Source: an uncultured Candidatus Saccharibacteria bacterium
Lineage (GTDB): Bacteria; Patescibacteriota; Minisyncoccia; Phycocordibacterales; Phycocordibacteraceae
NCBI GenBank assembly: GCA_964646315.1
Contig: CAZYDN010000001.1
Span: 4,650 to 60,238, forward strand
Reading direction: 5' to 3'
Length of the DNA: 55,589 nt
Shown here: positions 38,820 to 55,523 of the stretch, piece by piece
Position numbering within the stretch: position 1 is the first letter of the stretch
Layout: every line of letters starts with the position of its first letter
Position numbers and translations under genes: made by a program
The notes under the pieces: generated by a model
The model's database searches: none
What the model saw: only the letters and a program-made list of their open reading frames with translations
What the model was told of the DNA's origin: nothing

Positions 38820-38844
38820 TACCACACAGTACCACTCACTCTTC

Positions 38845-39087: not shown

Positions 39088-39158
39088 GGCGCCAGTATAC
39101 CAACACGCATGAGGCTTTTTCGTATTATGTACAATTTATGCAACATGTGATATAATAT

Positions 39159-40127: not shown

Positions 40128-40135
40128 TCCCCATA

Positions 40136-40165
40136 TTGACGGGTGAACCCTGGTTCACCTACTAT
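40136..40165 (+). promoter_or_regulatory. lexA promoter with embedded SOS (LexA) box
   Basis: TTGACG (40136-40141), 18-nt spacer, TACTAT (40160-40165). The whole spacer is the perfect palindrome GGTGAACC-CT-GGTTCACC, which contains GAAC-N4-GTTC (40145-40156). The ATG at 40172 implies a leaderless or near-leaderless mRNA. Confidence 0.65.
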
Positions 40166-40171
40166 GAAGAG

Positions 40172-40741: not shown

Positions 40742-40757
40742 TAGGAACATCCATATT

Positions 40758-42035
40758 ATGAATGTTCCTAATCAGCGACAAAATTTTATATTACACGTAG
40801 ATGGAGACGCATTCTTCGCCATGTGCGAAGTTTCCAGGCGACCCGACCTGCGGGGGAAACCGGTGGTCACCGGGCGTGAACGTGGCATCGTAACTGCCGC
40901 CACCTACGAAGCCAAAGCGCTGGGTATCAGCAGGGCGACTCCCATACATGTTGTGCGAAGCCACTTCCCCCAGGTTACCGTTCTTCCTTCGGACTACGAA
41001 CTCTACGCCACTATTTCAAAGCGAATGTACGCGATTACAAGACGCCACGCACCTCTGGTAGAAGAATATGGTGTGGATGAATGCTTTGCAGACCTCTCTC
41101 ATGTAGCTGATCCCCTAGCATGTGCACGAGCGATAAAAGAAGATTTGCAACGAGAGCTCAATATGACTTTCTCTCTTGGCATGGGCCCTACAAAAGTGCT
41201 CGCGAAGCTCGCATCAAAGCACGAAAAGCCAAACGGATTCTGCGTCGTAACTGCCGAGAACCGCGAGACGCTTCTGCGTAACACGCCTGCCGCATATGTG
41301 TGGGGTATCGGCCCGCAGAGTGTAAAGAAGCTTGTTGGCATGGGTATTCATTCTTCGCTTGAATTTGTGCAATCAGACCGCGCGCGTATAGAACGCATTT
41401 TTACCAAACCCATGATTGAGGTATGGGAGGAGTTACGAGGAAACAGTGTACTTCCCGTAGATTACATAAACGCTACGGATCAAAAATCGGTACAGCGCAC
41501 TCGCACGTTTACCCCACCTACCCGCGACCCCCGTCATCTTTTCTCTGAACTCTCACAACACACAGAACATGGATGCAGAAAAATACGCAGGCTAGGACTA
41601 GTGGCCGACAGTATGAGTTTCTTTTTGAAGACACAGGACTTTCGCTACCAGGGTGGTGAAATTCGTTTGCTAGTTTCTACAAGCTCTCCGGGAGATATTC
41701 TTCCCCTTTTACGCTCTGCATTTTTGAAAGTATATAAAAAAAACATTCTGTATCGAGCCACAGGTATTACGCTGCACAATCTTCACGCTCCAAGTAGTGT
41801 GCAGCAAGATTTGTTTGATACCGAACACAAAGGAGAAAAGAACGAGCGGCTCATGATTGCCATGGATAGACTCGAGCATAAGTATGGCGATCATACGCTC
41901 TATCTGGGCACCAGTGCGCGCAGTATTATGCAGGACCGTCTGCAGCCCGCACCCTCACCCATTCACACCGAAGCTCTCATACACACAGACAAAGGATTGA
42001 AACGTTTTCCCATTCCCTATTTAGGGTCGGTGTAA
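40758..42035 (+). CDS. dinB: DNA polymerase IV
   Basis: ILHVDGDAFFAMCE and VDECFADLS, with Y-family polymerase architecture. It starts 17 nt after the lexA stop. Confidence 0.9.
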   Translation: MNVPNQRQNFILHVDGDAFFAMCEVSRRPDLRGKPVVTGRERGIVTAATYEAKALGISRATPIHVVRSHFPQVTVLPSDYELYATISKRMYAITRRHAPLVEEYGVDECFADLSHVADPLACARAIKEDLQRELNMTFSLGMGPTKVLAKLASKHEKPNGFCVVTAENRETLLRNTPAAYVWGIGPQSVKKLVGMGIHSSLEFVQSDRARIERIFTKPMIEVWEELRGNSVLPVDYINATDQKSVQRTRTFTPPTRDPRHLFSELSQHTEHGCRKIRRLGLVADSMSFFLKTQDFRYQGGEIRLLVSTSSPGDILPLLRSAFLKVYKKNILYRATGITLHNLHAPSSVQQDLFDTEHKGEKNERLMIAMDRLEHKYGDHTLYLGTSARSIMQDRLQPAPSPIHTEALIHTDKGLKRFPIPYLGSV

Positions 42036-42277
42036 ATTAGCTTGAGCTTTTCGTCTCGGGACAGTTGCTTGAGCGTGTACTCGCGCCTGGTAGCCTCGGT
42101 TCGGTCTACGCACGTTTCGGTATATACAAGCACTACCGGGCGTTTTGCACGCGTGTATTTTGCCCCCTTAGGAGAATCATTATGTTCTTTAATTCGTCGC
42201 TCTACATCCGTCGTCACTCCACTGTAGAGTGTTCCGTCTGCGCATTCCACCATGTAGACGTACCACTCTTTTGGCAT
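42017..42277 (-). CDS. GIY-YIG nuclease family protein
   Basis: WYVYMVECADGTLYSGVTTDVERRIKEHN. Confidence 0.8.
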   Translation of the reverse strand: MPKEWYVYMVECADGTLYSGVTTDVERRIKEHNDSPKGAKYTRAKRPVVLVYTETCVDRTEATRREYTLKQLSRDEKLKLIYTDPK

Positions 42278-42280
42278 GAA

Positions 42281-43771
42281 TTACTTTTTACCTAAGTCGA
42301 GAACATTGTCGATGCGTATTTGCTCCACAAATTCAGGAACGTGAGATACCAAAATCATAGCGCCTTCGTATTCGTCGAGCGCCTTCGCAATCACCGGAAG
42401 GTGGCGGAAGTTTATGTGGTTGGTTGGCTCGTCGAGTATTAAAAGTCCTGGACGCATGAGCACCAAACGAGCAAATGCCACGAGGCCTTTCTGTCCTTCA
42501 GAAAGGGAGCCAATTTTCTTGTTCATGTGCTCAGCCGTAATAATGAAGCTCGCCGCTACCTTGCGCATCGCTTCTTCCTCAGGCTTATCCATAATGGCAA
42601 GCAACTCCTCTCGAACGGTTCGTTCAAAATTGAGCGTGGTGAAATCCTGACGGTAGTACCCTACCCGGACTCCCTTAGCAATCTGCGCACCCTCGGCTTC
42701 TCCAGAAGCAAGGCGTTCAAGGAGTGTTGTCTTTCCGATACCGTTTGGACCCTTAAGCTGTAAGTGCTGCTTTTTCTTGAGTACGATATCTGCCTTGTGC
42801 GTCACCGGCACATGCTTTTTAGGATCGATGGTGGTGTACGAAGTAATGGTGAGAAGTTCTCCAATAATTTCAGGCTGAGCAGGAATCACAAAGTTACGGA
42901 TGGTCTTATCCTCTTTGCGCACATCCACTTTGTCTTCCTCCATTTCCTCAATTGCGGTACGCATTTTCTTTGCGACTACACGCATCTTGCCTCCTTTCTG
43001 TGCAAAGAAGTTAGCCTTGTCTTTGTTGTCTTGAATCTGCTTCTCAAGCTGCGCGTTCTTTCGATTCTCGCGCTCAATACGAGCCTGAATTTCTTTAAGA
43101 AGGTCATAGTAGTTACCCACGTACTGCTCAATCCTGCGTGTGTGCACATCAAGGTAGAGCACGCCTTCGGTAAAGGAGTTGAGGAATTCTGCATCATGGG
43201 AAATAACCATCACACTCTTCTCGTACTTTTTCAAGAACGACGTAAGGTGCTCTATACCTGCAGTGTCGAGGTTGTTGGTAGGCTCGTCGAGTAGAAGCAG
43301 GTCGGGGTCCTGAATAAGTGCGGATGCAAGAAGCAAGCGCGCCTGCTGGCCACCAGAGAATGACTTTATGATGCGATCGTGAGGAGCGTGAAGGTTTACT
43401 ACTTCGAGCACCGCTTCAATCTTTGGGTCGATATCATAGACCTTTTCCGAAAATCGCTTCTCAAAAAATTCTCGTATGGTGAGCTCACGATCTTCCTGAG
43501 CTACAACCTGTGAGGAAATTGCGATAGAGAGCCCGCGCGGAATCTGTATCTTTCCGTCTTCCGGCTTAAGCTCGCCCATGATGAGCTTAAAGAGCGTCGA
43601 CTTTCCGGCGCCGTTTTGCCCCATGAGCGTTACCTTCATTCCGCGACGGAGATTGAAATTTACCGAGTCGAGGATAGGGTGATTGTGACCGAATCCAAAG
43701 GACACGTTCTCGAATCGGACCAGAGCCTCTTTTGGAGGCCCTCCTTGTTCTGTACTTAGTTTGCTAGCCAC
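42281..43771 (-). CDS. ABC-F family ATPase
   Basis: Two ABC cassettes (GQNGAGKST, GPNGIGKTT, LSGGQQ, LSEGQK) with a charged linker. GTG start. Confidence 0.85.
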   Translation of the reverse strand: MASKLSTEQGGPPKEALVRFENVSFGFGHNHPILDSVNFNLRRGMKVTLMGQNGAGKSTLFKLIMGELKPEDGKIQIPRGLSIAISSQVVAQEDRELTIREFFEKRFSEKVYDIDPKIEAVLEVVNLHAPHDRIIKSFSGGQQARLLLASALIQDPDLLLLDEPTNNLDTAGIEHLTSFLKKYEKSVMVISHDAEFLNSFTEGVLYLDVHTRRIEQYVGNYYDLLKEIQARIERENRKNAQLEKQIQDNKDKANFFAQKGGKMRVVAKKMRTAIEEMEEDKVDVRKEDKTIRNFVIPAQPEIIGELLTITSYTTIDPKKHVPVTHKADIVLKKKQHLQLKGPNGIGKTTLLERLASGEAEGAQIAKGVRVGYYRQDFTTLNFERTVREELLAIMDKPEEEAMRKVAASFIITAEHMNKKIGSLSEGQKGLVAFARLVLMRPGLLILDEPTNHINFRHLPVIAKALDEYEGAMILVSHVPEFVEQIRIDNVLDLGKK

Positions 43772-43861
43772 GTTTCCTGCACTCTACCACATTTATAGGT
43801 TGTTGGTAAGCCCTTATAAGAGCAGCCCCGCGTATTACCGCGGGGCTGAAGTTCCTCTCAC

Positions 43862-44329
43862 TTACATGGAGGGAATGTAGAGCAGGCACAGAGTGCCGGG
43901 GCCCCACGGCGCTTCGTCTCCCTGGTAGGGTGCGCGCGCGAAGCCGGTATCGGTACGGACCGCCACCATTGGCGCGCCACCCACTGGATAAACGACAATG
44001 CGCTCAAAGGCGAATTTGTGTTCGTGGGTGTCCTTGTGAACCCATTCCAAACACTGAAAGAAACGGGCTGCTTCCACCTGTACTTCCACCCCGAAGTCGT
44101 TGCGTACCTGTTTCTCAGTCTCGCTTCGCGTGAGGCCAGAAACATCCACGAGCTGGAACGTGCCACCGAGCCAGCCGATTTCCGCCACGACCGAAGAGTC
44201 TTCAAAACCCGTAATCGCTGGGAACAGTTTCGGGTCTGGCGGAATATGAGGCGCCGGAATCCGAAGGGGTGGCAAGTGACAGTACGAGACAATTCGCAGT
44301 CGCTTCTTTTCAAGAACTGGTGTCATCAA
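43862..44329 (-). CDS. hypothetical protein
   Basis: ATGATG is preceded by AGGAGA. I prefer it over the overlapping Arg/Ser-rich frame 43858..44313. A terminator hairpin lies at 43827-43848. Confidence 0.45.
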   Translation of the reverse strand: MMTPVLEKKRLRIVSYCHLPPLRIPAPHIPPDPKLFPAITGFEDSSVVAEIGWLGGTFQLVDVSGLTRSETEKQVRNDFGVEVQVEAARFFQCLEWVHKDTHEHKFAFERIVVYPVGGAPMVAVRTDTGFARAPYQGDEAPWGPGTLCLLYIPSM

Positions 44330-44401
44330 ACTTCTCCTGATTATGAGACGGTTTTCACTATGCGTGAGTACTCTAAGAATGGCAAGTAGTACGGGCGATT
44401 A

Positions 44402-45160
44402 TTACAAAAAGTCTTTAAGCTCCTTTGCATTATCAAGCGCGTAGCCGTGGAAATCATTATTGAAGTATACGTAGACTCGCTTAGTTTTCTTTGCAGCTTT
44501 TTCTATAAACATCGCCCATTCTTTAAGCTGTTCAGTAGAATACTTAGAAGCAAACAGTTTCTCGGGGCCGTGCATACGTACATACGCTATGTCCGCGGTT
44601 ATCTCCTGAACACCCGGATACCGAGAGGACTGGGCAGCTACTAGAGCGACGTTATGCTTCCTCAGAAGTGCATACAACTCTTTTGTGAACCAATACTTAT
44701 TTCTAAACTCAATGGCGATGTCGGGAGGATACTGAAGCTTACGCGCATGTGTTGTGAAGAATATGAGGAATGTATCGAGCTTCTCAAGATCGAACCTAAA
44801 GCTCGGCGGTAGCTGAATAACTATCGCTCCGAGTTTTTCCCCGAGTATCTGCGTTGATTCAAGTATATATATGACTTTCTCTTCCGCTTCCTTTGTTCGC
44901 TCTAGCCGCGCTATATGAGTGATAGCCTTATTAAGCTTTAGGGAAAACTTGAAACCCTCCGGTGTCATGCGCGACCAGGTCTTGTAGGTTGTTTCCTTAC
45001 TGATGCGATAGAAGGAGGAGTTATTCTCCACCGTATCGAAATGCTCTGAGAAGAATTTGAGCTCGTTGTACCCTTTCACCTCTTCAGGATAGAAGAGACC
45101 GATCCAGTGGTTGTAGTGCCAGCCCGAAGTGCCTATGTATATCTGCGCTGGCTTTTTCAT
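44402..45160 (-). CDS. DUF72-family protein
   Basis: IYIGTSGWHYNHWIGLFYP and VENNSSFY are typical of DUF72. Confidence 0.8.
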   Translation of the reverse strand: MKKPAQIYIGTSGWHYNHWIGLFYPEEVKGYNELKFFSEHFDTVENNSSFYRISKETTYKTWSRMTPEGFKFSLKLNKAITHIARLERTKEAEEKVIYILESTQILGEKLGAIVIQLPPSFRFDLEKLDTFLIFFTTHARKLQYPPDIAIEFRNKYWFTKELYALLRKHNVALVAAQSSRYPGVQEITADIAYVRMHGPEKLFASKYSTEQLKEWAMFIEKAAKKTKRVYVYFNNDFHGYALDNAKELKDFL

Positions 45161-45222
45161 TTACGACAGTTAACACTACCTATCATGAGCAAATGATTAA
45201 TGCCCTGATAATATTTTGGGAT

Positions 45223-45618
45223 CTACGTGATTGCTAGCCAGCGTTTAATGAAGCTTTTGAGTGCAGATTCACGCTCTTCAATATCCTTAATGCTCTTGAA
45301 TGTTGCGTACCCACGAATATCCGAGACCCACTCGAGGATTTGTGCGGCGTCTTCTATAATCGGTGCTCCCTTCTTATCCTCCTTGCGTAGTGCACCCATA
45401 TGAAAGACAAGCTTTACCCGACCCTCCTTATTCGCAACATTGAATGTAATTCGATCTTCTCCAGCAAATGCGTAATTCGGAGCGTTCCATTTGATACTTT
45501 CAACGAGTCGAGAATTGGCGGCAAGAATAATTCGGCGCAGAGATTCAATTTGAATTTTCTTTCCCTTTGGTTGGTCATTTAAAAATTCCTCGACGGTCTT
45601 ATACTTTTTCATACTCAT
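45223..45618 (-). CDS. DUF1801 (YdhG-like) domain protein
   Basis: VESIKWNAPNYAFAGEDRITF pattern. Its 5' region runs straight into motif copy 1. Confidence 0.65.
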   Translation of the reverse strand: MSMKKYKTVEEFLNDQPKGKKIQIESLRRIILAANSRLVESIKWNAPNYAFAGEDRITFNVANKEGRVKLVFHMGALRKEDKKGAPIIEDAAQILEWVSDIRGYATFKSIKDIEERESALKSFIKRWLAIT

Positions 45619-45650
45619 AGTGTAGCAAGGATGTTTTCACAGACTGATAT

Positions 45651-45678
45651 TGCAGGCAATCCGGGACGATGTTGGAAC
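45651..45678 (+). repeat. array motif copy 1 (left arm divergent)
   Basis: TGCAGGCAATCCGGGACGATGTTGGAAC. Confidence 0.85.
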
Positions 45679-45722
45679 CGTCCTAGTAGGAACTCGGTTT
45701 TCATGAACCCTTATAAAAAAGG

Positions 45723-45749
45723 TGGGCGCCGCAGATTGTGCGGCGCCCA
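45723..45749 (-). terminator. rho-independent terminator of the lipoprotein cassette
   Basis: TGGGCGCCGCA / TGCGGCGCCCA stem. On the minus strand it is followed by TTTTTT. Confidence 0.75.
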
Positions 45750-45766
45750 TTCGAAGAGATAATGCG

Positions 45767-46252
45767 TTACAGGGTACGACTGAAGCGGTAAGTCCGCCAC
45801 GCGCGGTCGTATGTGTCGCCGTCCTCAGGACACAGCACGCTCGTGAAATTACTCCACCGTAGCGTATCCGTTTCCTCGGTTGTTAACCTGAGTTCAGTAT
45901 CGCTTCCCCACCAAGGTTCGAGCGTGTAGCTCTTGTACCGACGGGAACTTTTTCCGAAGCGCTCGAATTCAGTGCTTTTGATGCGGTAGAACTCGCCGTC
46001 CTTACTGCGCAGCAGGACGACCCCTTCGTCGACATACTGGCAGCTATAGATCGCGCCTTGATAGTTTATGCCGATCCTAATCTTAAATTTATCAATGGCA
46101 TCGCGCTCTTTGGCATCAGCCACCTGTATTCGCGGCAATTTGCTATCGAGCAAATCAGCTCCCGACGGTGGAGCAGGAGATTTCGGACCAGGGTCGTCGT
46201 TGCAGGCTGCAGCCATGAGCGACAGAATAGCAATTGCGGTTACCTTGCGCAT
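45767..46252 (-). CDS. hypothetical lipoprotein
   Basis: MRKVTAIAILSLMAAAC is a signal peptide plus Cys. RBS AAGGAAA. It has its own promoter, TTGACA (46313-46308), 16-nt spacer, TATTAT (46291-46286). Confidence 0.6.
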   Translation of the reverse strand: MRKVTAIAILSLMAAACNDDPGPKSPAPPSGADLLDSKLPRIQVADAKERDAIDKFKIRIGINYQGAIYSCQYVDEGVVLLRSKDGEFYRIKSTEFERFGKSSRRYKSYTLEPWWGSDTELRLTTEETDTLRWSNFTSVLCPEDGDTYDRAWRTYRFSRTL

Positions 46253-46378
46253 GAATCGGTTTCCTTGTTTTCAAATCTATATACCATAATAGCATGTTAT
46301 ATAAGATTGTCAATCGACAAACATATTGACCCGTTTACGAATTACTCGTTGGCCATTTCGTATTCGTATACTCTATTA

Positions 46379-46403
46379 GCTGGCCGCGGGACGATGTTGG
46401 AAC
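46379..46403 (+). repeat. array motif copy 2
   Basis: GCTGGCCGCGGGACGATGTTGGAAC. Confidence 0.85.
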
Positions 46404-46478
46404 TGTCATGAATAATGTAAACCCACCGCCAAACAGTAGACAGAGGATTTCCATCTTAGTTCGACAGTGGGTTGGGTA

Positions 46479-46862
46479 TTAGCCGTTGGCTCGCATGTCC
46501 TCGACGGCGATCACTTCCAATTGGTCCACCAGCTTGATACGGTTTTCGGGGAGCAGGTACCCGAGTTGCACTTTTTCGCCGACCGATTGGATGACGGCGA
46601 TGACCTGCTCGATGACGAGCTTGGGATCGAAGGCGTAGCCGACACCAGTCTCGAGCGAATAGGTGCTCACCATGATTTCCCGATCGATGCCGGGAATCTC
46701 GGCGATTCCCTCGCAGATCTTCTTGCCGATTTCGGTAAGAGTGTCAGGGACATAGTCAGTCCTGAAGAAGCTCCGTGAGAGACGCGTGCGAAGACGCACA
46801 TCTAGATGAACCCTGAAACCGTTTCCGGTGCCTGAGGCTTTCTCGAACAGAATCGTAGCCAT
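46479..46862 (-). CDS. hypothetical protein (127 aa)
   Basis: RBS AGGAGA 6 nt before the ATG. A TTGACA-type promoter lies on the minus strand around 46935-46975. Confidence 0.55.
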   Translation of the reverse strand: MATILFEKASGTGNGFRVHLDVRLRTRLSRSFFRTDYVPDTLTEIGKKICEGIAEIPGIDREIMVSTYSLETGVGYAFDPKLVIEQVIAVIQSVGEKVQLGYLLPENRIKLVDQLEVIAVEDMRANG

Positions 46863-47088
46863 GAGTATCTCCTGGTTGACCCGCAGAAAGCGAGTATGAA
46901 AACAACAATTTCAATATTAATTTAACACTTATAATACGATATTGTCAATAGTAAATTGACTCTACGGAATAGAGCGACAACCCAGGCTAAATGGGGTCAG
47001 GACCCATTCTTTGGCCTGCCTACACCTCGTAGCTAAATGGCTACATGAGTCCTGCCCCCATTTATCATAAAGAGGTATTGAAAATATA

Positions 47089-47115
47089 GCTGGCAGTCTG
47101 GGACGATGTTGGAAC
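47089..47115 (+). repeat. array motif copy 3 (consensus)
   Basis: GCTGGCAGTCTGGGACGATGTTGGAAC, identical to copies 5 and 9. Confidence 0.95.
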
Positions 47116-47124
47116 TTTTTATAC

Positions 47125-47153
47125 TTGACTTAATATAGGTTTAGATTTATAAT
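47125..47153 (+). promoter_or_regulatory. sigma-70-type promoter of the 39-aa peptide cassette
   Basis: TTGACT, 17-nt spacer, TATAAT. Confidence 0.6.
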
Positions 47154-47181
47154 AAATGTACAGATCTTTAAGGAGCCGCCA

Positions 47182-47301
47182 ATGAATTGGTTAGCCTTTA
47201 TAATCGGCTTTTTGCTTGGATTTCCGATTAACCTAAGCATTGGCCTCTTGTGGGGAGTTGTCGCCGGTATGCTTCTGTTTCCTCCGAAAAAGAAGAACTG
47301 A
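47182..47301 (+). CDS. 39-aa hydrophobic membrane peptide
   Basis: RBS AAGGAG. MNWLAFIIGFLLGFPINLSIGLLWGVVAGMLLFPPKKKN. Not in the ORF track because it is under 60 aa. Confidence 0.5.
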   Translation: MNWLAFIIGFLLGFPINLSIGLLWGVVAGMLLFPPKKKN

Positions 47302-47367
47302 CATACCGGGGTAATCTCGCAGACGAGAGCGCACGACCTTTGGGTACGGCGCTCTTACTAATTTGAG

Positions 47368-47393
47368 TTGGCTGCGTGGGACGATGTTGGAAC
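47368..47393 (+). repeat. array motif copy 4
   Basis: TTGGCTGCGTGGGACGATGTTGGAAC. Confidence 0.85.
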
Positions 47394-47625
47394 TTTTGTA
47401 TATAAACGATGAGGGCCGGAACATTGTCCCGGCCCTCCGCCAACATCATATATGCCCTTAGGCACAGACCGAGCTAGTCATGATGCGGCGAACTCGGCTG
47501 CTCTAGTGGCCCTTACGCATAAGCCCTCCCTTCGTTAAAGGAAACGATTGGATCGGGTTTAGAATGTATCCGGTCCGTTTATAAGAGTGCCCTAGGGAGA
47601 AAGGTAAGTCAAAGATCATAATTTA

Positions 47626-47654
47626 TTGCTGGCAGTCTGGGACGATGTTGGAAC
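47626..47654 (+). repeat. array motif copy 5 (consensus)
   Basis: TTGCTGGCAGTCTGGGACGATGTTGGAAC. Confidence 0.95.
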
Positions 47655-47705
47655 CCTTATGCAATCTATGCTAGTTTCTGTCTAGACCAGAAATGGAGAG
47701 AATAG

Positions 47706-48215
47706 ATGAGATGGATTGGAATTAGTGGAGGTTGGCGAACAGCCAATGAAGTCGTCGAACGAGATGTCCGTGCCATGGTTCAGGGTATTCTCAATCGTGG
47801 CGACGGTATCGTCTCAGGAGGTGCCTTGAACGTGGACTACATTGCCACAGATGAAGCCCTGAAGCTGAATCCCGAAGCGACCCGTATCAAGGTGTTCCTC
47901 CCCGTTACGCTTGAGCGGTACTCTGCCCATTACAGGAACAGAGCCGAAGAAGGTGTCATTACACATGCGCAGGCCGAGATACTCATCGAGCAACTCACGC
48001 GCCTCAGAACGGCAAACGCATATGCGCTAATCGAGCATCCGACAAACACTGTCTGCAATGAGACTACCTACTATGAGCGGAACATGGAAGTTATCAATGC
48101 TTCTGACGAGCTCTACGCGTTTTGGATCAATCGTACTTCCGGTACGAAAGATGCTATTGAAAAGGCGAAGTCTCAAGGCAAGCCTGTTTCGATATTCAAC
48201 TATGAAGTCCCTTGA
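47706..48215 (+). CDS. SLOG/DprA-like Rossmann-fold protein (DUF2493-like), hypothetical
   Basis: 169 aa. IVSGGALNVDYIATDEAL resembles the GGAxGxD nucleotide-binding loop of the DprA/LOG/SLOG superfamily. RBS GGAGAG. Confidence 0.5.
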   Translation: MRWIGISGGWRTANEVVERDVRAMVQGILNRGDGIVSGGALNVDYIATDEALKLNPEATRIKVFLPVTLERYSAHYRNRAEEGVITHAQAEILIEQLTRLRTANAYALIEHPTNTVCNETTYYERNMEVINASDELYAFWINRTSGTKDAIEKAKSQGKPVSIFNYEVP

Positions 48216-48250
48216 GGGTCGCGGAGAGATTCGCGGCCTTTTCTTTTATA

Positions 48251-48274
48251 TTGCTGGCAGAGTAGGTATCGAAC
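48251..48274 (+). repeat. array motif copy 6, left half only
   Basis: TTGCTGGCAG is followed by the unrelated AGTAGGTATCGAAC. It directly abuts the stop of the flavoprotein gene. Confidence 0.6.
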
Positions 48275-49522
48275 TTACGCGTTCTTGCCCGCAATGTACC
48301 CGGTAGTCCAACAAAGCTGGAGCGAGTACCCTCCAGACGGACGAGTGATGTCGAGCAAATCTCCGGTGACCAAAAGATTTGAAATTTTTGTAGACCGCAT
48401 TGTGCGCATATCAATTTCTGCGAGAGTGACTCCCCCGTCTGCAACCACCGCTCTACTGAAGCCCATGAGCCCCGAGATAGTTGCCGGAAGCCCCTTAAAC
48501 AAATCCACAAGCACGCGGCGCTGCTCCTTGGTGACGCTGTGCACTTTGGTGTCCGGGTCTATCTCTGGAACTAATCCTAGAAGCACTTCTACGCAACTAG
48601 AAGGAATGAGGCTCGGGAGCGCATTACGAAGAAGTTTATTCTTGTTGCTATCAAAAAGAGCTACGAGCTCTTGATCGAGAATTCCAATGTCCTTTGTAGG
48701 AAATAAATCGATTGCAGCAGTTACTGTGCCCGCGTGGAGCAGGTCCGCTACATCTCCTGCACTGTTTAAAATAGTCGGTCCAGAAAGACCAAAGTGAGTA
48801 AGAAGGATATTTCCCTTCTTAGAGAAACTACGCACGCCATCTTGAAAGAACGTAATTTTTGCGTTTTCAAATGTCGTACCTTTTAACTTGTGAATCCACT
48901 TCTCCTTTGCAGCAAGTGGCACAATAGTGGGTGTAGGAGAGAGCACTGTGTGTCCAAGCTCAGAAAGCCAATTAAATCCGTCTCCCGTAGAGCCGGTCTC
49001 TGGGTGTGACACGCCTCCGGTAGCGAAAATGTAGGAATCAGCTGAAAATTCAAATCCTTGAGCCACAATTGAAGTAATTGCTCCAGCTTCTGTTTTAATG
49101 CGAGCAATTTCTGTATTAAGTCTCACCTCCACATTCCCCTTACGCAAATAGTCTTCAAGCGCAGCCACTACACTTGGTGCATGCTGTGACTTTGGAAATG
49201 CGCGATTAAGCTTCTCCACAACAATAGGCACGCCGATGCGTTCAAAAAAGGCCACCGACTCCTGCATACCGAACTCGGAAAATGCAGAAAAGAGAAAAGG
49301 TGCCGCTTCTCCGTAGTGTGACAGAAGTGCGCGCTCATTTTCCTGTGCGTTCAAAATATTGCAGCGTCCTCCACCTGAAATGGCGAGCTTCGCACCAAGC
49401 ACATCGTTCTTCTCAAGCAGAAGCACACGCTTCCCCGCCTCTGCAGCTATACCCGCAGCCATCATGCCCGAGGCTCCGCCGCCTACTACAATGACGTCGT
49501 GCGTATGTAGACTCTTAGCCAT
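48275..49522 (-). CDS. NAD(FAD)-utilising dehydrogenase, HI0933/BaiN family flavoprotein
   Basis: VIVVGGGASGMMAAG and LAISGGGRCN. Confidence 0.85.
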   Translation of the reverse strand: MAKSLHTHDVIVVGGGASGMMAAGIAAEAGKRVLLLEKNDVLGAKLAISGGGRCNILNAQENERALLSHYGEAAPFLFSAFSEFGMQESVAFFERIGVPIVVEKLNRAFPKSQHAPSVVAALEDYLRKGNVEVRLNTEIARIKTEAGAITSIVAQGFEFSADSYIFATGGVSHPETGSTGDGFNWLSELGHTVLSPTPTIVPLAAKEKWIHKLKGTTFENAKITFFQDGVRSFSKKGNILLTHFGLSGPTILNSAGDVADLLHAGTVTAAIDLFPTKDIGILDQELVALFDSNKNKLLRNALPSLIPSSCVEVLLGLVPEIDPDTKVHSVTKEQRRVLVDLFKGLPATISGLMGFSRAVVADGGVTLAEIDMRTMRSTKISNLLVTGDLLDITRPSGGYSLQLCWTTGYIAGKNA

Positions 49523-50399
49523 GAGTAACTTCCGAAGTGTTTGCTACGTGTTCTTTGCACTCGAGGGAGCAATAGGTACCAGACTCTTCTTGACAATCAC
49601 TGCAGGCGAGGAAATGAAGGTGGCAAAAATTATTAGCGCAGTTTACGTATTCCTCCGTAGCTGCTCCACAGTGCTTACAGCGCCCCACAATTTCACGGTC
49701 TCCACCAAAGTTCATGGTGAGACGTTTATCAAACGTATAAAGCGAGCCAAGGAAGTCCTTTCCAGGATACTTCTCCATATACGCATGCATGCCGTTCTCC
49801 AGCTGGTACACATCGTTAAATCCGTTCTCAAGAAGAAAGGCAGACATCTTTTCGCAGCGAATACCTCCCGTGCAGACAGTGAGCACCGTTTTGTCTTTGA
49901 GCTCTTCGAGCTTTGGCAGTGCGAGTGGCAAGTCACGAGAGTTCTCAAGACCTGGATTTATAGAATCTTTGAAGTGTCCGGCCTGGTACTCGTAGTCGTT
50001 GCGCATATCTACAACCACAAAGTCTTTTCCTTCCTCGTACCAATTGCGAAGCTCTTCTGGCTTTAAGTGGGTGGCAGTGCGTACGCGAGGATCCACATTC
50101 TTAGGAAAACGAGTACCCACAATTTCGTCTCGCACTTTTACATACAATTTAGAAAACGCAGCTCCGGTGCCTTCGCTACGCTTTATGTTCATATCTGAGA
50201 AACGCGGGTGTTCAAGCAAGCTAGACGCGAAGAGTTCTGTATTTTCTACAGTCCCTTCTACGGTGCCGTTTATTCCCTCTTCTGCTACCAATATGCGGCC
50301 AAGGAGGCCGTGCTTTGTGGCAAGAGCACGAATACTATGCATAAGGGCAACAGGGTCCTCTATGGTGACGTATTTATAGAAAAGCAGTACTTGCGGCAT
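49515..50399 (-). CDS. trhO: rhodanese-domain protein of the UPF0176/TrhO family
   Basis: LLFYKYVTIEDP N-terminus, a rhodanese domain with CTGGIRCE, and a C-terminal Cys cluster. Confidence 0.75.
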   Translation of the reverse strand: MPQVLLFYKYVTIEDPVALMHSIRALATKHGLLGRILVAEEGINGTVEGTVENTELFASSLLEHPRFSDMNIKRSEGTGAAFSKLYVKVRDEIVGTRFPKNVDPRVRTATHLKPEELRNWYEEGKDFVVVDMRNDYEYQAGHFKDSINPGLENSRDLPLALPKLEELKDKTVLTVCTGGIRCEKMSAFLLENGFNDVYQLENGMHAYMEKYPGKDFLGSLYTFDKRLTMNFGGDREIVGRCKHCGAATEEYVNCANNFCHLHFLACSDCQEESGTYCSLECKEHVANTSEVTHG

Positions 50400-50441
50400 G
50401 ATTTTTGCATTTTACCAGGTTCGTGGCGTCCTGTCAGTTTG

Positions 50442-50984
50442 CTACTTCGAAGGCAAGGTTAATGAATATTCACCAATATGAATCCATTCAGATACTTCAC
50501 CTTCGGTTTTATATAGATGTATACGATCTACTAGAAATGTCTCGCCTGGAGGCAGCGAAAGTGCCTGCGCAGTTTTTTGCTTGCGGTCATACGGGTAATT
50601 CCCATACAGCAAACTTACGTGTGGAATATACGCTCTCTCATCCTCAGTACCAAAAATCTGGTTCGCACTTTTATGTGCTCGCACTATCTCTTCACACTCT
50701 GCATGAACATACAGGGCTCTAAAATAAGCATCTTCAAGACCAAAATTTCCAAGAGTAATGGAAAACGGAGCGATCTGTTCTGCTAGGAGTTTTGCCTTCT
50801 CTACAAGAAGCGCTTCTTCCTCTGAGGCAATGCGAGCAAGTAGTGTGACATGGGGAGTGAATAATGGACCTCCGTACTCTTCCGCAAGCTGCTCAATAAC
50901 GGTACTAAGCTTTTGACGGAGGACACCTTCAGGCTCTAGAAAAAGATGGTATCCGGCAGTGCTACTACTGTGGGGATCGAACAT
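50442..50984 (-). CDS. 2H phosphoesterase / 2'-5' RNA ligase family protein
   Basis: Two HxT/S motifs, PHVTLLA and PHVSLLY. Confidence 0.75.
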   Translation of the reverse strand: MFDPHSSSTAGYHLFLEPEGVLRQKLSTVIEQLAEEYGGPLFTPHVTLLARIASEEEALLVEKAKLLAEQIAPFSITLGNFGLEDAYFRALYVHAECEEIVRAHKSANQIFGTEDERAYIPHVSLLYGNYPYDRKQKTAQALSLPPGETFLVDRIHLYKTEGEVSEWIHIGEYSLTLPSK

Positions 50985-51057
50985 TTCAGCATAGTATCAC
51001 GCACACCAGGTAGACTCATTTCTCCTTCGCTTCTTGGCAATAACTTATGTGAAAAGG

Positions 51058-51684
51058 TTAATCCTGAATGTGTAGCCCAAAAACTCCTGAGAGATAGAGC
51101 GCTTGTCCTGTTGATACGGTTACATTCTCGATACTCGTTTTATCTATTTTTATATCTTCTAGATTGGATCCGGGGAACTGCACGTCCATGAGTTTTCCAG
51201 ATACAAATTGAGCACTTTCCAAATTACAGTTCCGAAACTCTACATTTTCGAGCGTTGCACCGAGAAAATCACACCCAACCATTTCGCATGAATAAAAAAG
51301 AACATCCTTCAATTTACTAAATCTAAAGTTGGCTCCATCGAGCTTCGAGGAAGCAAAATGCACATCTTGCATATCGGACTCTGCAAGGGTCACCGCCTGG
51401 AATCGGGTGGACTTTACTAGCACACGATTAAGACTCGCCTCGTACACCGCCGCCCCGGTGAACGTGCACTTTTCCAAAATTGTGTCCGTTATATTCGCCT
51501 CGGCTACATTGGCTCCAGTAAAATTACTATTTTCTACAACGCATTCTTCGAACGTAACTTTCTCTAACTTCGCGTCCTCCAGAAGCGCGCCCACCACTAG
51601 CGCACCTTCCATATATATCTCTGCTCCAGGACTCACTTGTGTATGCGTGAGCTTTTCTCGTTTTACGTCCGGCTTGCGTACCAT
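51058..51684 (-). CDS. pentapeptide-repeat protein
   Basis: Continuous A(D/N)LxX-type pentapeptide repeats. Confidence 0.8.
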   Translation of the reverse strand: MVRKPDVKREKLTHTQVSPGAEIYMEGALVVGALLEDAKLEKVTFEECVVENSNFTGANVAEANITDTILEKCTFTGAAVYEASLNRVLVKSTRFQAVTLAESDMQDVHFASSKLDGANFRFSKLKDVLFYSCEMVGCDFLGATLENVEFRNCNLESAQFVSGKLMDVQFPGSNLEDIKIDKTSIENVTVSTGQALYLSGVFGLHIQD

Positions 51685-51693
51685 ACGGTGATT

Positions 51694-51948
51694 CTATCCT
51701 ACCTCGCGATGAGGACATCCTGCCCAGCAACACGGACGACGCATACCACCATTGAGCTTGGATATCGCTTTCTCAATACGAATACTTCTTGTCTCAGCCT
51801 TCTTGCCCGACGTTACCCAGCAAATCCATTCACTACGCGCGAGTGGTGTGATGTCTTCCCACACGGTGCGCGCTTTCACGGAAGCAGACAGCGCTTCACG
51901 CAAGTCCTTTGGCAGAGAGTGCATCGAGCCGGAGGCCAGGTTCTTCAT
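51694..51948 (-). CDS. YdeI/OmpD-associated family protein
   Basis: PKDLREAL...WEDITPLARSEWICWV...KAETRSIRIEKAISKL pattern. Confidence 0.6.
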   Translation of the reverse strand: MKNLASGSMHSLPKDLREALSASVKARTVWEDITPLARSEWICWVTSGKKAETRSIRIEKAISKLNGGMRRPCCWAGCPHREVG

Positions 51949-51970
51949 ATGGTAATTATATCAAAATATA

Positions 51971-51992
51971 GCTACCAGAAATCAGTTGGAAC
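51971..51992 (+). repeat. array motif copy, right half intact and left half degenerate
   Basis: GCTACCAGAAATCAGTTGGAAC followed by CTTTTAT, as in other copies. Confidence 0.6.
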
Positions 51993-52023
51993 CTTTTATG
52001 TTCACAGATAGTTATCCTAGTAT

Positions 52024-52281: not shown

Positions 52282-52306
52282 AAACTATCAAGATTAGATG
52301 TGGCCC

Positions 52307-53077
52307 TTAGGATTTCTTAAAACCTTCAAACGCCTTTAGCACCTCGAGCGGAAGGGCGAACACTACCGTGTTCGATTGATCTGAAGAAATATCATTTATC
52401 GATTGGAGCGTTCGTAGATGAAGTGCTCCCGGAACAGCCGAGAGGATGCTTGCCGCCTGAGCAACCTTTTCGGCAGCCGCAAGTTCTCCCTCAGAGTTGA
52501 TAATAACGGCGCGCTTCTCGCGCTCAGCCTCTGCCTGCTTCGCAATGGTGCGCTCCATTTCGGGAGGAAGACTCACATCTTTCAGTTCAACGTTCTGAAC
52601 TTTTAGACCCCATGCATCAGTTTCAAGATCTACTATCTCGCGAATGCGCTCCGCAATTCTATCCCTTCCTGAAAGAAGTTCGTCCAAAGTAACTTCGCCC
52701 ACAATATTACGCATAGTTGTTTGAGCGTACTGCGAAATTGCATAGCGGAAATCCTCTACCTCTATAATTACTTTTTCGGCATCAGATACTTTGTAATAAA
52801 TAACAGCATTAACACGCACTGAAACGTTGTCGCGCGTAATTGCATTTTGGTCGGGCACATCAACAGCTTTGGTACGCATGTCGACCTTTTGAAAGGCCTG
52901 AAATATCGGGATAACTATTCTCCATCCGGGTTCCAAAATTCCAGAGAACCGACCCATAGTAAAAAGTACCCCGCGCTCGTACTGGTTAATTTGTCGGATA
53001 ACAAGAAACAGAACTGCGATTGCAGCAACTACAAGAATAAGAAGAAATAGAGGGTCCATATGTAAGTATCGTATCAT
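52307..53077 (-). CDS. SPFH/band 7 (stomatin-like) protein
   Basis: N-terminal TM helix plus an SPFH core (VDMRTKAVDVPDQNAITRDNVSVRVNAVIYYKV). The start could be 53059. Confidence 0.85.
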   Translation of the reverse strand: MIRYLHMDPLFLLILVVAAIAVLFLVIRQINQYERGVLFTMGRFSGILEPGWRIVIPIFQAFQKVDMRTKAVDVPDQNAITRDNVSVRVNAVIYYKVSDAEKVIIEVEDFRYAISQYAQTTMRNIVGEVTLDELLSGRDRIAERIREIVDLETDAWGLKVQNVELKDVSLPPEMERTIAKQAEAEREKRAVIINSEGELAAAEKVAQAASILSAVPGALHLRTLQSINDISSDQSNTVVFALPLEVLKAFEGFKKS

Positions 53078-53186
53078 TTTTCTGAATGAGAAAATGGTTA
53101 ATGAATTGGCCTTCCTGCAATTCTAAACGACCCCCTGCTAATTCCACACGTAACTAATAGGAATTACGTAATGTTATAGGAAGTAT

Positions 53187-53486
53187 ATGAAATGGAATCC
53201 TCTGATAAATGCCGTATTCGCTGTGCTTTATATAGGTACTGTAGTTCTCTTTATGCATTATATTGAGTCACTACGTCACAATACTCCAGACACCTTCCTA
53301 GATGGTATTGGCGCAATTTCTCTGTTTGTATTTTCCGCAGCAATTATGGCTTTCCTGTTTTTTTATCAGCCTATCGTAAGACTCATAGAGAATAAGAAGA
53401 CCGAAGCGGTATCGTACTTTCTCAAAACGCTTGGCATATTTGGCTTTGTAACGCTCGTGATACTTGTCTTAGTAAGTATTCAATAG
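53187..53486 (+). CDS. 99-aa membrane protein, hypothetical
   Basis: RBS AGGAAG and three TM helices. Confidence 0.55.
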   Translation: MKWNPLINAVFAVLYIGTVVLFMHYIESLRHNTPDTFLDGIGAISLFVFSAAIMAFLFFYQPIVRLIENKKTEAVSYFLKTLGIFGFVTLVILVLVSIQ

Positions 53487-53518
53487 ATACTCGCAGCTGG
53501 GATAAAGTGTAAACGTCT

Positions 53519-53701
53519 TCAATTCCCTTCTTTCAACGCTCTGCGTATCAAGGATTCTGCGATTCGCAGTGCAGCAATTCTGTTTTCAATAAGTGTCAGA
53601 TGACCCCGGGTTAAATTCACCTTCGCCTTCTCACTCTTACTAATCAAAGAGTTAATCCTCTCAAGTGCACCCTCTAGTTCTTCTTTAGAAAAATCTATCA
53701 T
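53519..53701 (-). CDS. 60-aa helical hypothetical protein
   Basis: ORF only, with a weak RBS. Confidence 0.35.
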   Translation of the reverse strand: MIDFSKEELEGALERINSLISKSEKAKVNLTRGHLTLIENRIAALRIAESLIRRALKEGN

Positions 53702-53791
53702 GCCTGAATTCTACACTGTTGGAGCACCGCCATCTGAGATGACTTTGGAATATTCCGAATAATGGAAAAAGCGACCACGTGAGTGATCGCC

Positions 53792-54016
53792 TTATTCTAA
53801 TAATTCGACTTCCTTCCGTCGAACTAATTTATCGATACCAACAAGTCGATATGCCGGAGTCAGAGATAAGGGGTCCTCGAATTTAGATTCTACCGTCACC
53901 GTAGCGCCGATAAGATTACAAACGCATCCCCTATTCTCTCCGTGTTCACGGGCTTCGCAGACAAGCACCGATACCAACTTCCCAATGATCTTGTCATCGT
54001 ATGTCCATGTGGTCAT
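53792..54016 (-). CDS. 74-aa hypothetical protein
   Basis: RBS GGAGG 5 nt before the ATG of MTTWTYDD. A minus-strand terminator hairpin lies at 53773-53792. Confidence 0.5.
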   Translation of the reverse strand: MTTWTYDDKIIGKLVSVLVCEAREHGENRGCVCNLIGATVTVESKFEDPLSLTPAYRLVGIDKLVRRKEVELLE

Positions 54017-54080
54017 AGGAACCTCCAATCTCAGTTGAGGATGCCAGGAACGAATTGTTAAATCAAGTTAACAATCTAAG

Positions 54081-54093
54081 GCGATGTTGGAAC
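54081..54093 (+). repeat. array motif copy, right half only
   Basis: GCGATGTTGGAAC. The sequence to its left is unrelated to the motif's left arm. Confidence 0.7.
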
Positions 54094-54340: not shown

Positions 54341-54353
54341 TTCTCACTATATG

Positions 54354-54380
54354 GCTGGCAGTTTGGAACGATGTTGGAAC
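54354..54380 (+). repeat. array motif copy 8
   Basis: GCTGGCAGTTTGGAACGATGTTGGAAC. Confidence 0.9.
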
Positions 54381-54735: not shown

Positions 54736-54752
54736 TTTTCTGTTTTATAAAA

Positions 54753-54781
54753 TTGCTGGCAGTCTGGGACGATGTTGGAAC
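54753..54781 (+). repeat. array motif copy 9 (consensus)
   Basis: TTGCTGGCAGTCTGGGACGATGTTGGAAC. Confidence 0.95.
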
Positions 54782-55042: not shown

Positions 55043-55071
55043 TTGCTGACAGTTTGGAACGATGTTGGAAC
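55043..55071 (+). repeat. array motif copy 10
   Basis: TTGCTGACAGTTTGGAACGATGTTGGAAC. Confidence 0.9.
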
Positions 55072-55434: not shown

Positions 55435-55496
55435 TATGGTTCCTTTCTGTTCGTTTCTGCACTGACAATACAACTCTAGCTTCGCACGTCAAATAA

Positions 55497-55523
55497 GCTG
55501 GTAGTCTGGAACTATATTGGAAC
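55497..55523 (+). repeat. array motif copy 11 (diverged)
   Basis: GCTGGTAGTCTGGAACTATATTGGAAC. Confidence 0.8.

Follow-up and report, generated by a model that had tools for sequence, protein, structure and literature searches.

In integrons the cassette site, attC, consists of imperfect inverted repeats (R''-L''/L'-R') of 57-141 bp that form single-stranded hairpins; its structure is conserved while its sequence is variable. The gene for the tyrosine integrase, intI, adjoins the array and the attI site, and the cassette ORFs are mostly co-oriented and promoterless. A dif-type site is 28 bp long, two inverted 11-bp arms around a 6-bp spacer. CRISPR arrays have repeats of 28-37 nt, spacers of ~30-40 nt, and cas genes. 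The genomes of candidate-phyla-radiation bacteria are very small, and the gain and loss of accessory genes in this group is poorly understood. To our knowledge, the mobile elements so far recognised there are few.

The window analysed here, a stretch of 55,589 nt, carries two arrays of small gene cassettes, A and B (Table 1). Arrays of such tiny mobile cassettes occur lineage-wide across the Paceibacterota, which are candidate-phyla-radiation bacteria. Cassettes of ~0.5 kb in the same orientation are spaced by a motif, TTGCTGGCAGTCTGGGACGATGTTGGAAC(CTTTT), that is 29-36 nt long, unstructured, and a recombination site. In total we count ~150 motif loci, gathered via perfect copies, and nearly all are labelled Patescibacteria, Parcubacteria or Paceibacterota. 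An exact 22-mer of the motif is found at 65 genome loci and 90 metagenome loci, and the genome records with names are almost all MAGs of these same three labels. All of these data are MAGs or metagenome contigs, where misjoins at repeats are possible. Within the window the 16-mer GGGACGATGTTGGAAC has 10 matches with up to 3 mismatches where 0.33 are expected; all 10 are on the + strand and none comes before 45650. Across 425 motif copies the left arm agrees with the consensus at 0.69-0.95, and the centre and right arm at 0.87-0.99. Since the centre and right arm are the best kept, copies that retain only the right arm are expected from ordinary decay. The conserved stretch is only ~36 nt, with no signal in the flanks. 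We looked for a hairpin on both strands of the motif, and it folds no better than shuffled sequence (z +1.2 to +1.4). An inverted-repeat search reported no pair that involves the motif, and by direct reading the left arm agrees with the reverse complement of the right arm at 4 of 11 positions. Copies within arrays are all in direct orientation, 157-2819 nt apart. We rejected a CRISPR array on the basis of this spacing, the ORFs that fill the intervals, and the lack of cas among the recurrent flank genes, which are housekeeping genes. A search of viral contigs did not find the motif. Rfam has no family match in the array, and its only gathering-score match in the window is a tRNA at 13802-13874.

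Table 1. Features of the window in order of position.
Feature	Position	Strand	Remarks
Distal junction of array A	45650..45678	+	TTGCAGGCAATCCGGGACGATGTTGGAAC; backbone flank, shared segment and cassette arm
Array A, five cassettes	45654..48244	+	missing as a single block from L167
Motif copy 2, array A	46376..46403	+	family D2; left arm and centre decayed, 1 base shorter
Motif copy 3, array A	47087..47115	+	perfect core
Motif copy 4, array A	47365..47393	+	variant GGCTGCGTGGGAC, also in L008
Motif copy 5, array A	47626..47654	+	perfect
Anchor of array A	48251..48274	+	TTGCTGGCAGAGTAGGTATCGAAC; matches anchor consensus at 22/24
Backbone block, five genes	48275..51948	-	flavoprotein to YdeI
HI0933-like flavoprotein	48275-49522	-	
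TrhO/UPF0176-rhodanese	49515-50399	-	
2H phosphoesterase	50442-50984	-	
Pentapeptide protein	51058-51684	-	
YdeI/OmdA	51694-51948	-	
Isolated decayed motif copy	51970..51992	+	AGCTACCAG-AAATCA-GTTGGAAC; both arms present, centre 5 nt short
Decayed motif copy	53714..53751	+	9-10 nt insertion between left arm and centre
Decayed whole motif copy	54065..54093	+	19/25 core positions (54069-54093); six mismatches, all transitions
Motif copy, array B	54352..54380	+	
Motif copy, array B	54753..54781	+	perfect
Motif copy, array B	55043..55071	+	
Motif copy, array B	55495..55523	+	array continues beyond the window

Where at least 1.7 kb of downstream sequence is available, 57 of 74 arrays terminate at an anchor, TTGCTGG[C/G]AGACTAGGGATCGAAC, which represents the tRNA-Gln(UUG) 3' end in reverse complement. 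ARAGORN finds 12 full tRNA-Gln(UUG) genes among the anchors. Another 77 are pseudo-anchors, copies of ~24 nt without a tRNA gene, and such 24-nt copies are scattered over dozens of backbone positions. The only segment common to anchor and motif is (A)TTGCTGG[C/G]AG. Read in the + orientation of the window, an anchor is this shared segment followed by the tRNA arm ACTAGGGATCGAAC, and a cassette site is the shared segment followed by the cassette arm TCTGGGACGATGTTGGAAC. The repeated unit has only the last 11-19 nt in common with the tRNA; the motif adds a conserved 19-nt arm that is not tRNA. At its position 8 the shared segment has G in 11 of the 12 real tRNA anchors and C in 56 of the 77 pseudo-anchors and 357 of the 425 motifs. 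Exchange to the left of position 8 could account for this pattern, as could selection that keeps the tRNA functional.

The anchor of array A abuts the stop codon of the flavoprotein gene. The initial annotation saw an intact left arm at 48251, after which the sequence diverges. The arm is indeed intact: 48251-48260 is an exact TTGCTGGCAG, and the motif is left thereafter. What follows is not plain divergence, because 48261-48274 (AGTAGGTATCGAAC) and the arm together make a 24-nt copy of the tRNA-Gln 3' end. It can be divided into the reverse complement of the trailer, the discriminator, the 3' strand of the acceptor, the 3' strand of the T stem, and the T loop. A full tRNA-Gln(UUG) occupies the equivalent array position in 12 loci. 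This left-arm-only copy is a genuine recombination junction, of attL/attR type.

The empty site is found in L167, a MAG that has an identical DUF72 protein and a left flank 99.8% identical to the window. L167 matches the window through 45653 and resumes at 48245, and exactly what lies between is missing. Its DUF1801 and flavoprotein genes have an empty anchor between them, gattgatATTGCTTGCAGAGTAGGTATCGAACttacg. Together with the two junctions in the window this gives a quartet of the attB/attL/attR/attP type. Since L167 lacks exactly this interval and has an empty anchor, the inserted entity is the cassette array, and the reciprocal partner of 48251 is the motif at 45650 rather than 51971. So the original reading of 48251 as an attL/attR-like junction was right and its choice of 51971 as the partner was wrong. 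The proposed strand exchange in the central TCTGGGAC has to move as well; given how little anchor and motif share, exchange must occur within the left arm or where that arm meets the centre. A relative in which the block is free of flanking cassettes had been suggested as a check, and L167 is such a relative: the block there is contiguous with 44402-45160 and DUF1801. A second suggested check was whether the equivalent position has an uninterrupted full motif; in L167 it has the uninterrupted anchor instead. In L030 the anchor and flavoprotein gene come 540 nt after ABC-F, and a search for a motif copy between ABC-F and the anchor detected none.

The five cassettes of array A hold a 161-aa lipoprotein-like ORF, a 127-aa ORF, a small membrane peptide, no ORF, and a 169-aa DprA-like ORF. 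The DprA-like cassette is also in L057, at 88% nt identity, beside a different anchor and backbone. In L008 the cassette to the right of the GGCTGCGTGGGAC site is the same as in the window and the left neighbour differs. Logan contigs break at the fifth copy because its 31-mer is repeated at 54752.

Cassettes have a median size of ~0.5 kb, most of them 200-800 nt, with one ORF filling 70-79%. They usually carry a single gene and no recombinase gene. Clustering of 410 cassettes gives 306 clusters, of which 245 are singletons, and the recurrent cargo families include NUDIX, HAD and GNAT. The longest ORF is found on both strands relative to the motif (220 vs 170). There are terminator-like hairpins inside cassettes, and the motif comes after one cassette's terminator and before the next cassette starts; for longest ORFs on the opposite strand, the medians are 8 nt from stop to motif and 27 nt from start to next motif. 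Among independent site pairs, 9 have the left flank alone in common and 16 the right flank alone, and the homology stops at the motif edges. The same cassette is seen with different neighbours and at different anchors. A 78-aa-ORF cassette is an indel between the window and L008, and any exchange point to the right of the left arm would fit it. Wastewater and sludge metagenomes contain the joint 45202>48260 (118 nt on the shorter side, depth 8.4 vs 14.5 for the array form), the joint 53718>55055, which removes four cassettes, and a variant in which the PspC cassette left of 54753 has an anchor directly after it (loose end 54748; runs X1, X2, X5). Occupied and empty forms are present together in the same wastewater populations. 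These comparisons establish the reassortment of cassettes at the motif, along with the anatomy of the site, its empty and occupied forms, and its conservation across genomes.

We believe the best explanation, and a probable one, is that these are small cassettes that use the motif as their attachment site and insert serially at tRNA-Gln(UUG) 3'-end anchors. Cassettes would insert one after another at the tRNA 3' end or at a 24-nt copy of it. Exchange in the shared segment or at its edge would give the incoming cassette a full motif at its left end, and the same exchange would regenerate the anchor at the right end. Because the anchor would be remade at the right end, the newest cassette should adjoin it and older sites should decay farther off. 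The two copies nearest the anchor average 1.1-1.2 mismatches and the third and fourth 2.6-3.3, and mismatches rise with copy rank from the anchor (Spearman rho 0.30, p = 3e-5). A site-specific recombinase would presumably act in trans, probably a tyrosine recombinase, and the only candidate we see is an Xer-type enzyme. It is a weak candidate. Seed searches over ~1 Mb of array-bearing loci, with three approximate probe sequences (tyrosine, serine and IS200-type), found only three Xer-type genes, which are orthologous and share a single array position, at its distal end. When Xer loci are picked irrespective of the motif, an array adjoins 1 of 4. The protein is highly conserved in array genomes, with the best 120 matches mostly 77-100% identical. 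A Pfam scan of 10 larger ORFs in the window found no recombinase, and inside ~160 arrays no integrase genes or recognisable integrase fragments were found.

The 3.7 kb block is chromosomal backbone, not a piece excised by crossover, and it has the anchor of array A on its left and the decayed, distal end of array B on its right. Its five minus-strand genes are of an ordinary kind and were correctly named from the start. The initial annotation had the block placed or rearranged by a crossover in TCTGGGAC, with 48251 reciprocal to 51971 and 54081. It is easy to see why: 48251 has the left arm only, the other two keep the right arm best, and there is indeed an array on either side of the block. 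Genomes vary in the genes between ABC-F and tRNA-Gln, so recombination at the sites could in principle shift backbone. We consider this explanation very improbable, however. L167 gives a different partner for 48251, and the sequence after its arm is tRNA-like rather than randomly diverged. The anchor is kept next to the flavoprotein gene in L021, L027 and L030, with 20 of 24 nt retained, despite flavoproteins that are only 59-61% identical; in several genomes the flavoprotein is upstream of arrays. Decay that is random across the arms had been named as a finding that would refute the proposal; decay over the 425 copies is not random, and the right arm is the most conserved part. Nor are the right-hand copies half sites. 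The right arm of 51971 is good, as claimed (GTTGGAACCTTTTAT at 51985-51999), but its left arm is retained too: AGCTACCAG with its AT-rich leader agrees with the copy at 47081 at 14 of 16 positions (family D3). Strains differ to the right of this copy, where L167 has no motif, and the variation right of YdeI in L167 involves none. Likewise the copy at 54081 keeps its right arm (GCGATGTTGGAAC at 54081-54093), but as part of a decayed whole copy from 54069. The stretch 52282-54080 was called motif-free but contains a degenerate copy at 53714-53751, recognised via its better-kept orthologue in L008. That copy opens array B proper, after a membrane protein (53187-53486) which flanks arrays in other genomes too. 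Two further copies of array B lie past the last one in the window in L007.

Two other explanations must be weighed against serial insertion. The arrays could be the scars of larger integrase-bearing elements, phage-like or tycheposon-like, that entered repeatedly at tRNA-Gln and later lost most of their DNA, leaving cargo between attachment-site repeats that is not itself mobile. There is well-documented precedent for elements that integrate at tRNA 3' ends, accrete in tandem and leave partial-tRNA repeats (PMC4383910; tycheposon preprint 10.1101/2020.12.28.424599), and the pseudo-anchors do resemble displaced tRNA 3' fragments. We still think it unlikely. Cassette sizes are narrow, mostly 200-800 nt with one ORF filling 70-79%, and the idea fits poorly with ~160 arrays in which no integrase remains were found, with viral contigs in which the motif was not found, and with one cassette having different neighbours and anchors and homology that stops at the motif. 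Slightly less likely again is a motif that works mainly as a regulatory or RNA signal, for insulation, processing or termination, with cassettes turned over by homologous recombination after DNA uptake. The position of the motif between a terminator and the next start, with its short median distances to stop and start, is what such a signal would have, and 30-nt repeats could support RecA-dependent exchange between strains. But gene orientation relative to the motif is mixed, Rfam matches nothing in the array, the left arm of the motif is common with a tRNA 3' end, and arrays terminate at tRNA-Gln. The first insertion at an anchor would also have only ~11 nt of homology, too little for ordinary homologous recombination.

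Serial insertion at tRNA-Gln anchors provides a concrete, testable mechanism for accessory gene variation in these bacteria. The motif and anchor together are a sequence signature for finding such regions in any Paceibacterota genome, and they extend the solutions to cassette capture beyond the attC hairpins of integrons. It is possible, though we hold the idea only tentatively, that the Paceibacterota have a dedicated gene-capture system analogous to integrons but of different build, with an unstructured site of 29-36 bp conserved in sequence, many attI-like pads per genome that mimic the tRNA-Gln 3' end, and one recombinase in trans for all of them, possibly the single conserved Xer-type enzyme. 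If true, this would be a main source of strain-level variation in gene content in these reduced genomes.

The Xer modules of Acinetobacter plasmids (pdif) and the IMEX at dif are similar in that short sites of ~28-30 bp bound small modules without a recombinase, which would need a host enzyme in trans, here a candidate only. They differ because our site has no 11-6-11 dyad symmetry and its copies are direct, not alternating. The islands at tRNA genes (Islander-type, Prochlorococcus tycheposons, cis-mobilizable accretion) target the 3' part of a tRNA and keep the gene intact, as may be so for the 12 arrays here that end at a full tRNA-Gln(UUG) gene. They separate inserts with direct repeats related to the tRNA 3' end, a relation that is partial here, and newcomers displace older inserts away from the tRNA, as would happen here too. 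However, the units here are ~0.5 kb and lack an integrase, the repeat is only ~11-19 nt of tRNA plus the conserved 19-nt non-tRNA arm, and most anchors are scattered 24-nt copies rather than tRNA genes. Integrons, including the sedentary chromosomal ones and CALINs, agree with these arrays in several respects: same-orientation arrays of small, mostly single-gene cassettes with a recurring site, very diverse cargo that is mostly singletons, the same cassette across species and neighbours, and one fixed primary site with the newest cassette beside it, as the 57 of 74 arrays, the decay gradient and L167 indicate here. Unlike attC, the site here is 29-36 nt, conserved in sequence, and free of inverted repeats or a hairpin, and no intI lies beside the arrays. 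The cassette genes here are on both strands, often with their own terminators, a tRNA-Gln 3' end or its 24-nt copy serves as primary site, and each genome has many arrays.

The site that separates the cassettes, TTGCTGGCAGTCTGGGACGATGTTGGAAC, belongs to a widespread, apparently undescribed cassette system of the Paceibacterota. A search of the window finds it on the plus strand only and exclusively after 45650, and its 16-mer core gives 10 matches where 0.33 would be expected by chance. The exact 22-mer CAGTYTGGRACGATGTTGGAAC occurs in 65 stretches of species-representative genomes, labelled nearly all as Patescibacteria, Parcubacteria or Paceibacterota and often with several loci per genome, and in another 90 metagenome stretches; a search of viral contigs found no copy of the motif. 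At these loci the arrays hold 1 to 13 copies in the same orientation, with a median cassette length of ~505 nt. The cargo is varied: 410 cassettes fall into 306 clusters with 245 singletons, the recurrent families are NUDIX, HAD, serine hydrolase, nucleoside deoxyribosyltransferase-like, formyltransferase and GNAT, and the longest ORF of a cassette can lie on either strand (220 versus 170).

Several familiar kinds of repeat have to be weighed against this reading. The motif ends in GTTGGAAC, as a CRISPR-like repeat might, but the spacing of the copies and the ORFs between them exclude that. Direct reading of the sequence also argues against a sigma-70, sigma-54 or ECF promoter, since the hexamer spacing is unfit and the entire 29 nt, spacer included, is conserved. 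In an alignment of 197 distinct copies conservation runs from TTGC to GGAACCTTTTnT with nothing outside; this confinement to ~36 nt excludes an attC hairpin, as does folding, which on both strands is no better than for shuffled sequence. A dif-like dyad is absent. The motif is a compact, sequence-defined site and not an attC-type hairpin.

What was inserted at 48251 is best seen in L167, a metagenome-assembled locus whose DUF72 protein is identical to ours. It is 99.8% identical to the window over 38402-45653 and resumes at 48245, with 94.9% identity there. Its join reads gattgat-ATTGCTTGCAG-AGTAGGTATCGAAC-ttacg; the window junctions read gactgat-ATTGCAGGCAA-TCCGGGACGATGTTGGAAC at 45640 and ttttat-ATTGCTGGCAG-AGTAGGTATCGAAC-ttacg at 48240, and they enclose array A, five cassettes in 2.6 kb. 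Adding the consensus cassette site to these three sequences completes an attB/attL/attR/attP-type quartet. The initial annotation took the 3.7 kb gene block to be the inserted entity and 51971 to be the partner of the half-site at 48251. It was right that 48251 is a recombination junction, but its pairing of sites, its inserted entity and its location of the exchange all have to be given up: the quartet surrounds array A, so the partner is the motif at 45650, and what was inserted is array A (45654-48244, missing from L167). With identity changing across it (45653/48245), the anchor is also a border between segments whose histories differ in the window and L167.

Other forms are seen in wastewater and sludge contigs. 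In one form, which coexists with the array form, 45202 is joined to 48260 (shorter side 118 nt, depth 8.4 versus 14.5 for the array form), so that both DUF1801 and array A are missing. The joint 53718>55055 is array B minus four cassettes, and in one form the PspC cassette is followed directly by an anchor. We discarded joints with 41 nt or less on one side (47664>54707, 47668>47089, 45679>54754 and 47118>47625) as artefacts that k-mer overlap produces in Logan contigs at a repeated 31-mer. At the 45202 break, ATGCCCTGATAATATTTTGGGATC (window 45203-45222) may be a very decayed motif, in which case DUF1801 would be array A's oldest cassette.

The anchors are 3' ends of tRNA-Gln. A search with the arm alone shows that, where the sequence extends far enough downstream, most arrays have a copy of just the left arm beyond their last full motif, at a median distance of 470 nt and continuing as ACTAGGGATCGAAC. 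The resulting 24-mer, TTGCTGG[C/G]AGACTAGGGATCGAAC, is a tRNA 3' end in reverse complement, made up of 4 trailer bases, the discriminator, the 3' strands of the acceptor and T stems, and the T loop. ARAGORN predicts a complete tRNA-Gln(UUG) gene at the anchor position in 12 loci; in 77 other cases the 24-nt fragment stands alone in unrelated backbone. An anchor terminates 57 of the 74 arrays that are followed by 1.7 kb or more of sequence. Window 48251-48274 (TTGCTGGCAGAGTAGGTATCGAAC) agrees with the anchor consensus at 22 of 24 positions, so the half-motif there, whose exact left arm TTGCTGGCAG at 48251-48260 was correctly annotated, is not a motif minus its right part; it is the junction of the motif-shared segment and a tRNA-like arm. 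At Rfam gathering score the window holds a tRNA at 13802-13874 and no other match. At L008:2252-2330 an array contains a truncated tRNA-Gln without its 5' end, of which about the 3' half (T arm, anticodon stem-loop) is left; another motif and cassette come directly after it. It may represent an intermediate in the separation of anchors from the gene.

Where does the exchange occur? The initial annotation put it inside the centre, TCTGGGAC, a view we cannot share because anchor and motif have only (A)TTGCTGG[C/G]AG in common. In the quartet the cassette arm adjoins the backbone flank, and the tRNA arm adjoins the AT-rich end of the cassette. Since the common part is limited to that segment, these joins place the exchange in (A)TTGCTGG[C/G]AG or at its right border and not in TCTGGGAC. 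The most variable motif positions, 8, 9 and 12 (consensus frequency 0.84, 0.71 and 0.87), fall exactly at the border of the shared segment. Position 8 is G, which pairs with the tRNA 5' strand, in 11 of 12 real tRNA anchors, and C in 56 of 77 pseudo-anchors and 357 of 425 motifs; this bias means either exchange to the left of position 8 or selection for an intact tRNA. Site pairs that share one flank bound the exchange to positions -4 to +26 of the 25-nt core, the motif being too conserved for a tighter limit. In all copies conservation is highest in the right arm, so right-arm-only copies are what ordinary decay leaves and say nothing about crossover.

The cassettes themselves reassort. A comparison of 454 sites gives 9 independent pairs with only the left flank in common and 16 with only the right, and homology in these pairs ends at the motif edges. 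The DprA-like cassette 47655-48250 has an 88%-identical counterpart in L057, beside a different anchor and backbone. In L008, the cassette following 47365 has another left neighbour, the cassette with the 78-aa ORF (53752-54064) is missing, and different cassettes come after the PspC cassette. Motif decay increases with distance from the anchor (Spearman rho 0.30, p = 3e-5), mean mismatches to consensus being 1.1-1.2 at ranks 0-1 and 2.6-3.3 at ranks 2-3. The decayed copies in the window are the first of array A (45650, 46376), the first of array B (53714, 54065) and the isolated one at 51970. This gradient fits insertion at the anchor: new cassettes would enter there and displace older ones away from it. 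Within array A, an inverted repeat at 46988-47064, with 20-nt arms (TAAATGGGGTCAGGACCCAT / ATGAGTCCTGCCCCCATTTA), 90% complementarity and a 37-nt loop, occupies the non-coding cassette end before motif 47087. The cassette 47394-47625 (~230 nt) has no convincing ORF, but at least its first ~80 nt, as far as the L008 contig reaches, are 99% conserved there; it might encode a small RNA or peptide.

The initial annotation named the left arm and the five genes that follow it correctly, but three details of its half-motif observations have to be revised. The copy at 51970-51992 was said to have a degenerate left arm; in fact AGCTACCAG and its AT-rich leader match the 47081 copy at 14 of 16 positions, and it is the centre that is 5 nt short. 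It is an isolated relic at a strain-variable spot, where L167 has a different 1.2 kb insert free of the motif. The supposed right-arm-only site at 54081 is a copy at 54069-54093 that agrees with the core at 19 of 25 positions. All 6 of its differences from consensus are transitions, 5 of them G>A on the plus strand. Nor is 52282-54080 motif-free: a decayed copy at 53714-53751 is recognised via its orthologue in a related strain. The membrane protein at 53187-53486 is the distal array flank in four other loci (L014, L117, L129 and L151); therefore array B proper starts at 53714. A 99.6%-identical strain (L001:1-176) departs wholly from the window at 53697-53701, the start codon of a 60-aa minus-strand ORF, which makes this a further strain-variable junction near the decayed site 53714.

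The gene block has a different standing. In the window and three other loci (L021, L027 and L030) the flavoprotein stop codon adjoins the anchor, and in L030 no motif copy was detected in the 540 nt between ABC-F and the anchor, in further support of an empty form. At the flavoprotein anchor 20 of 24 nt are kept even though protein identity is only 59-61%, which suggests that the anchor is under constraint. Given the synteny and the kept junction, the block is thus old backbone, or possibly an island of great age, with a displaced tRNA-Gln-like anchor on one side and the true tRNA-Gln array on the other. Upstream of ABC-F, at 40136-42277, genes for Peptidase_S24 (LexA/UmuD-like; assigned from precomputed Pfam hits on L167), DinB-type polymerase IV and GIY-YIG lie together in an SOS-like arrangement. 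Between ABC-F and DUF72, a minus-strand ORF of 154-155 aa (43862-44329) is a gene call in several assemblies and has no Pfam match.

Features of the window and of compared loci (L-numbers)
Feature	Location	Strand	Arrangement
HI0933-like flavoprotein	48275-49522	-	
TrhO-type UPF0176/rhodanese protein	49515-50399	-	
2H phosphoesterase	50442-50984	-	
Pentapeptide-repeat protein	51058-51684	-	
YdeI/OmdA	51694-51948	-	
Good motif copies	45650, 46376, 47087, 47365, 47626, 54065, 54352, 54753, 55043, 55495	+	
Synteny	L021, L027		anchor, flavoprotein, one motif cassette, full tRNA-Gln
Synteny	L030		GIY-YIG, ABC-F, anchor, flavoprotein, array
Synteny	L035		GIY-YIG, ABC-F, flavoprotein, YdeI, one cassette, tRNA-Gln
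Synteny	L062		ABC-F, five cassettes, tRNA-Gln; without flavoprotein block
Xer-type gene	L019:4195-5190, L108:5431-6507, L118:4768-5628		array begins at or near stop codon
Xer-type gene	L174:3557-4909		motif, cassette and anchor upstream, ending 37 nt before start codon

Pfam finds no recombinase among 10 larger ORFs of the window. A phmmer search of ~1 Mb of loci, seeded with probe sequences for tyrosine, serine and IS200-type enzymes, gave three matches only, all Xer-type tyrosine recombinases (PF00589 and PF02899). The three genes are orthologous, and each borders, or is close to, the distal first motif at one and the same array position. Conservation of the protein in this group is high, the best 120 matches being mostly 77-100% identical. 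When Xer loci were picked regardless of the motif, one of four (L174) had a neighbouring array, not a significant result; the other three have variable genes downstream but no motif. We therefore infer that a putative recombinase acts in trans.

We found no description of this cassette system in the literature searched on integrons, cassettes, tRNA and recombinases of Patescibacteria and Parcubacteria. It resembles an integron in having a primary site, cassette arrays and a diverse cargo pool, but it fails the defining tests, with no adjacent intI gene and no attC structure. Unlike dif sites, the motif has no dif-like symmetry. It is also like tandem accretion at tRNA genes, known from Islander-type islands and tycheposons (PMC4383910; 10.1101/2020.12.28.424599), but the units here are tiny and carry no integrase, and most anchors are tRNA mimics.
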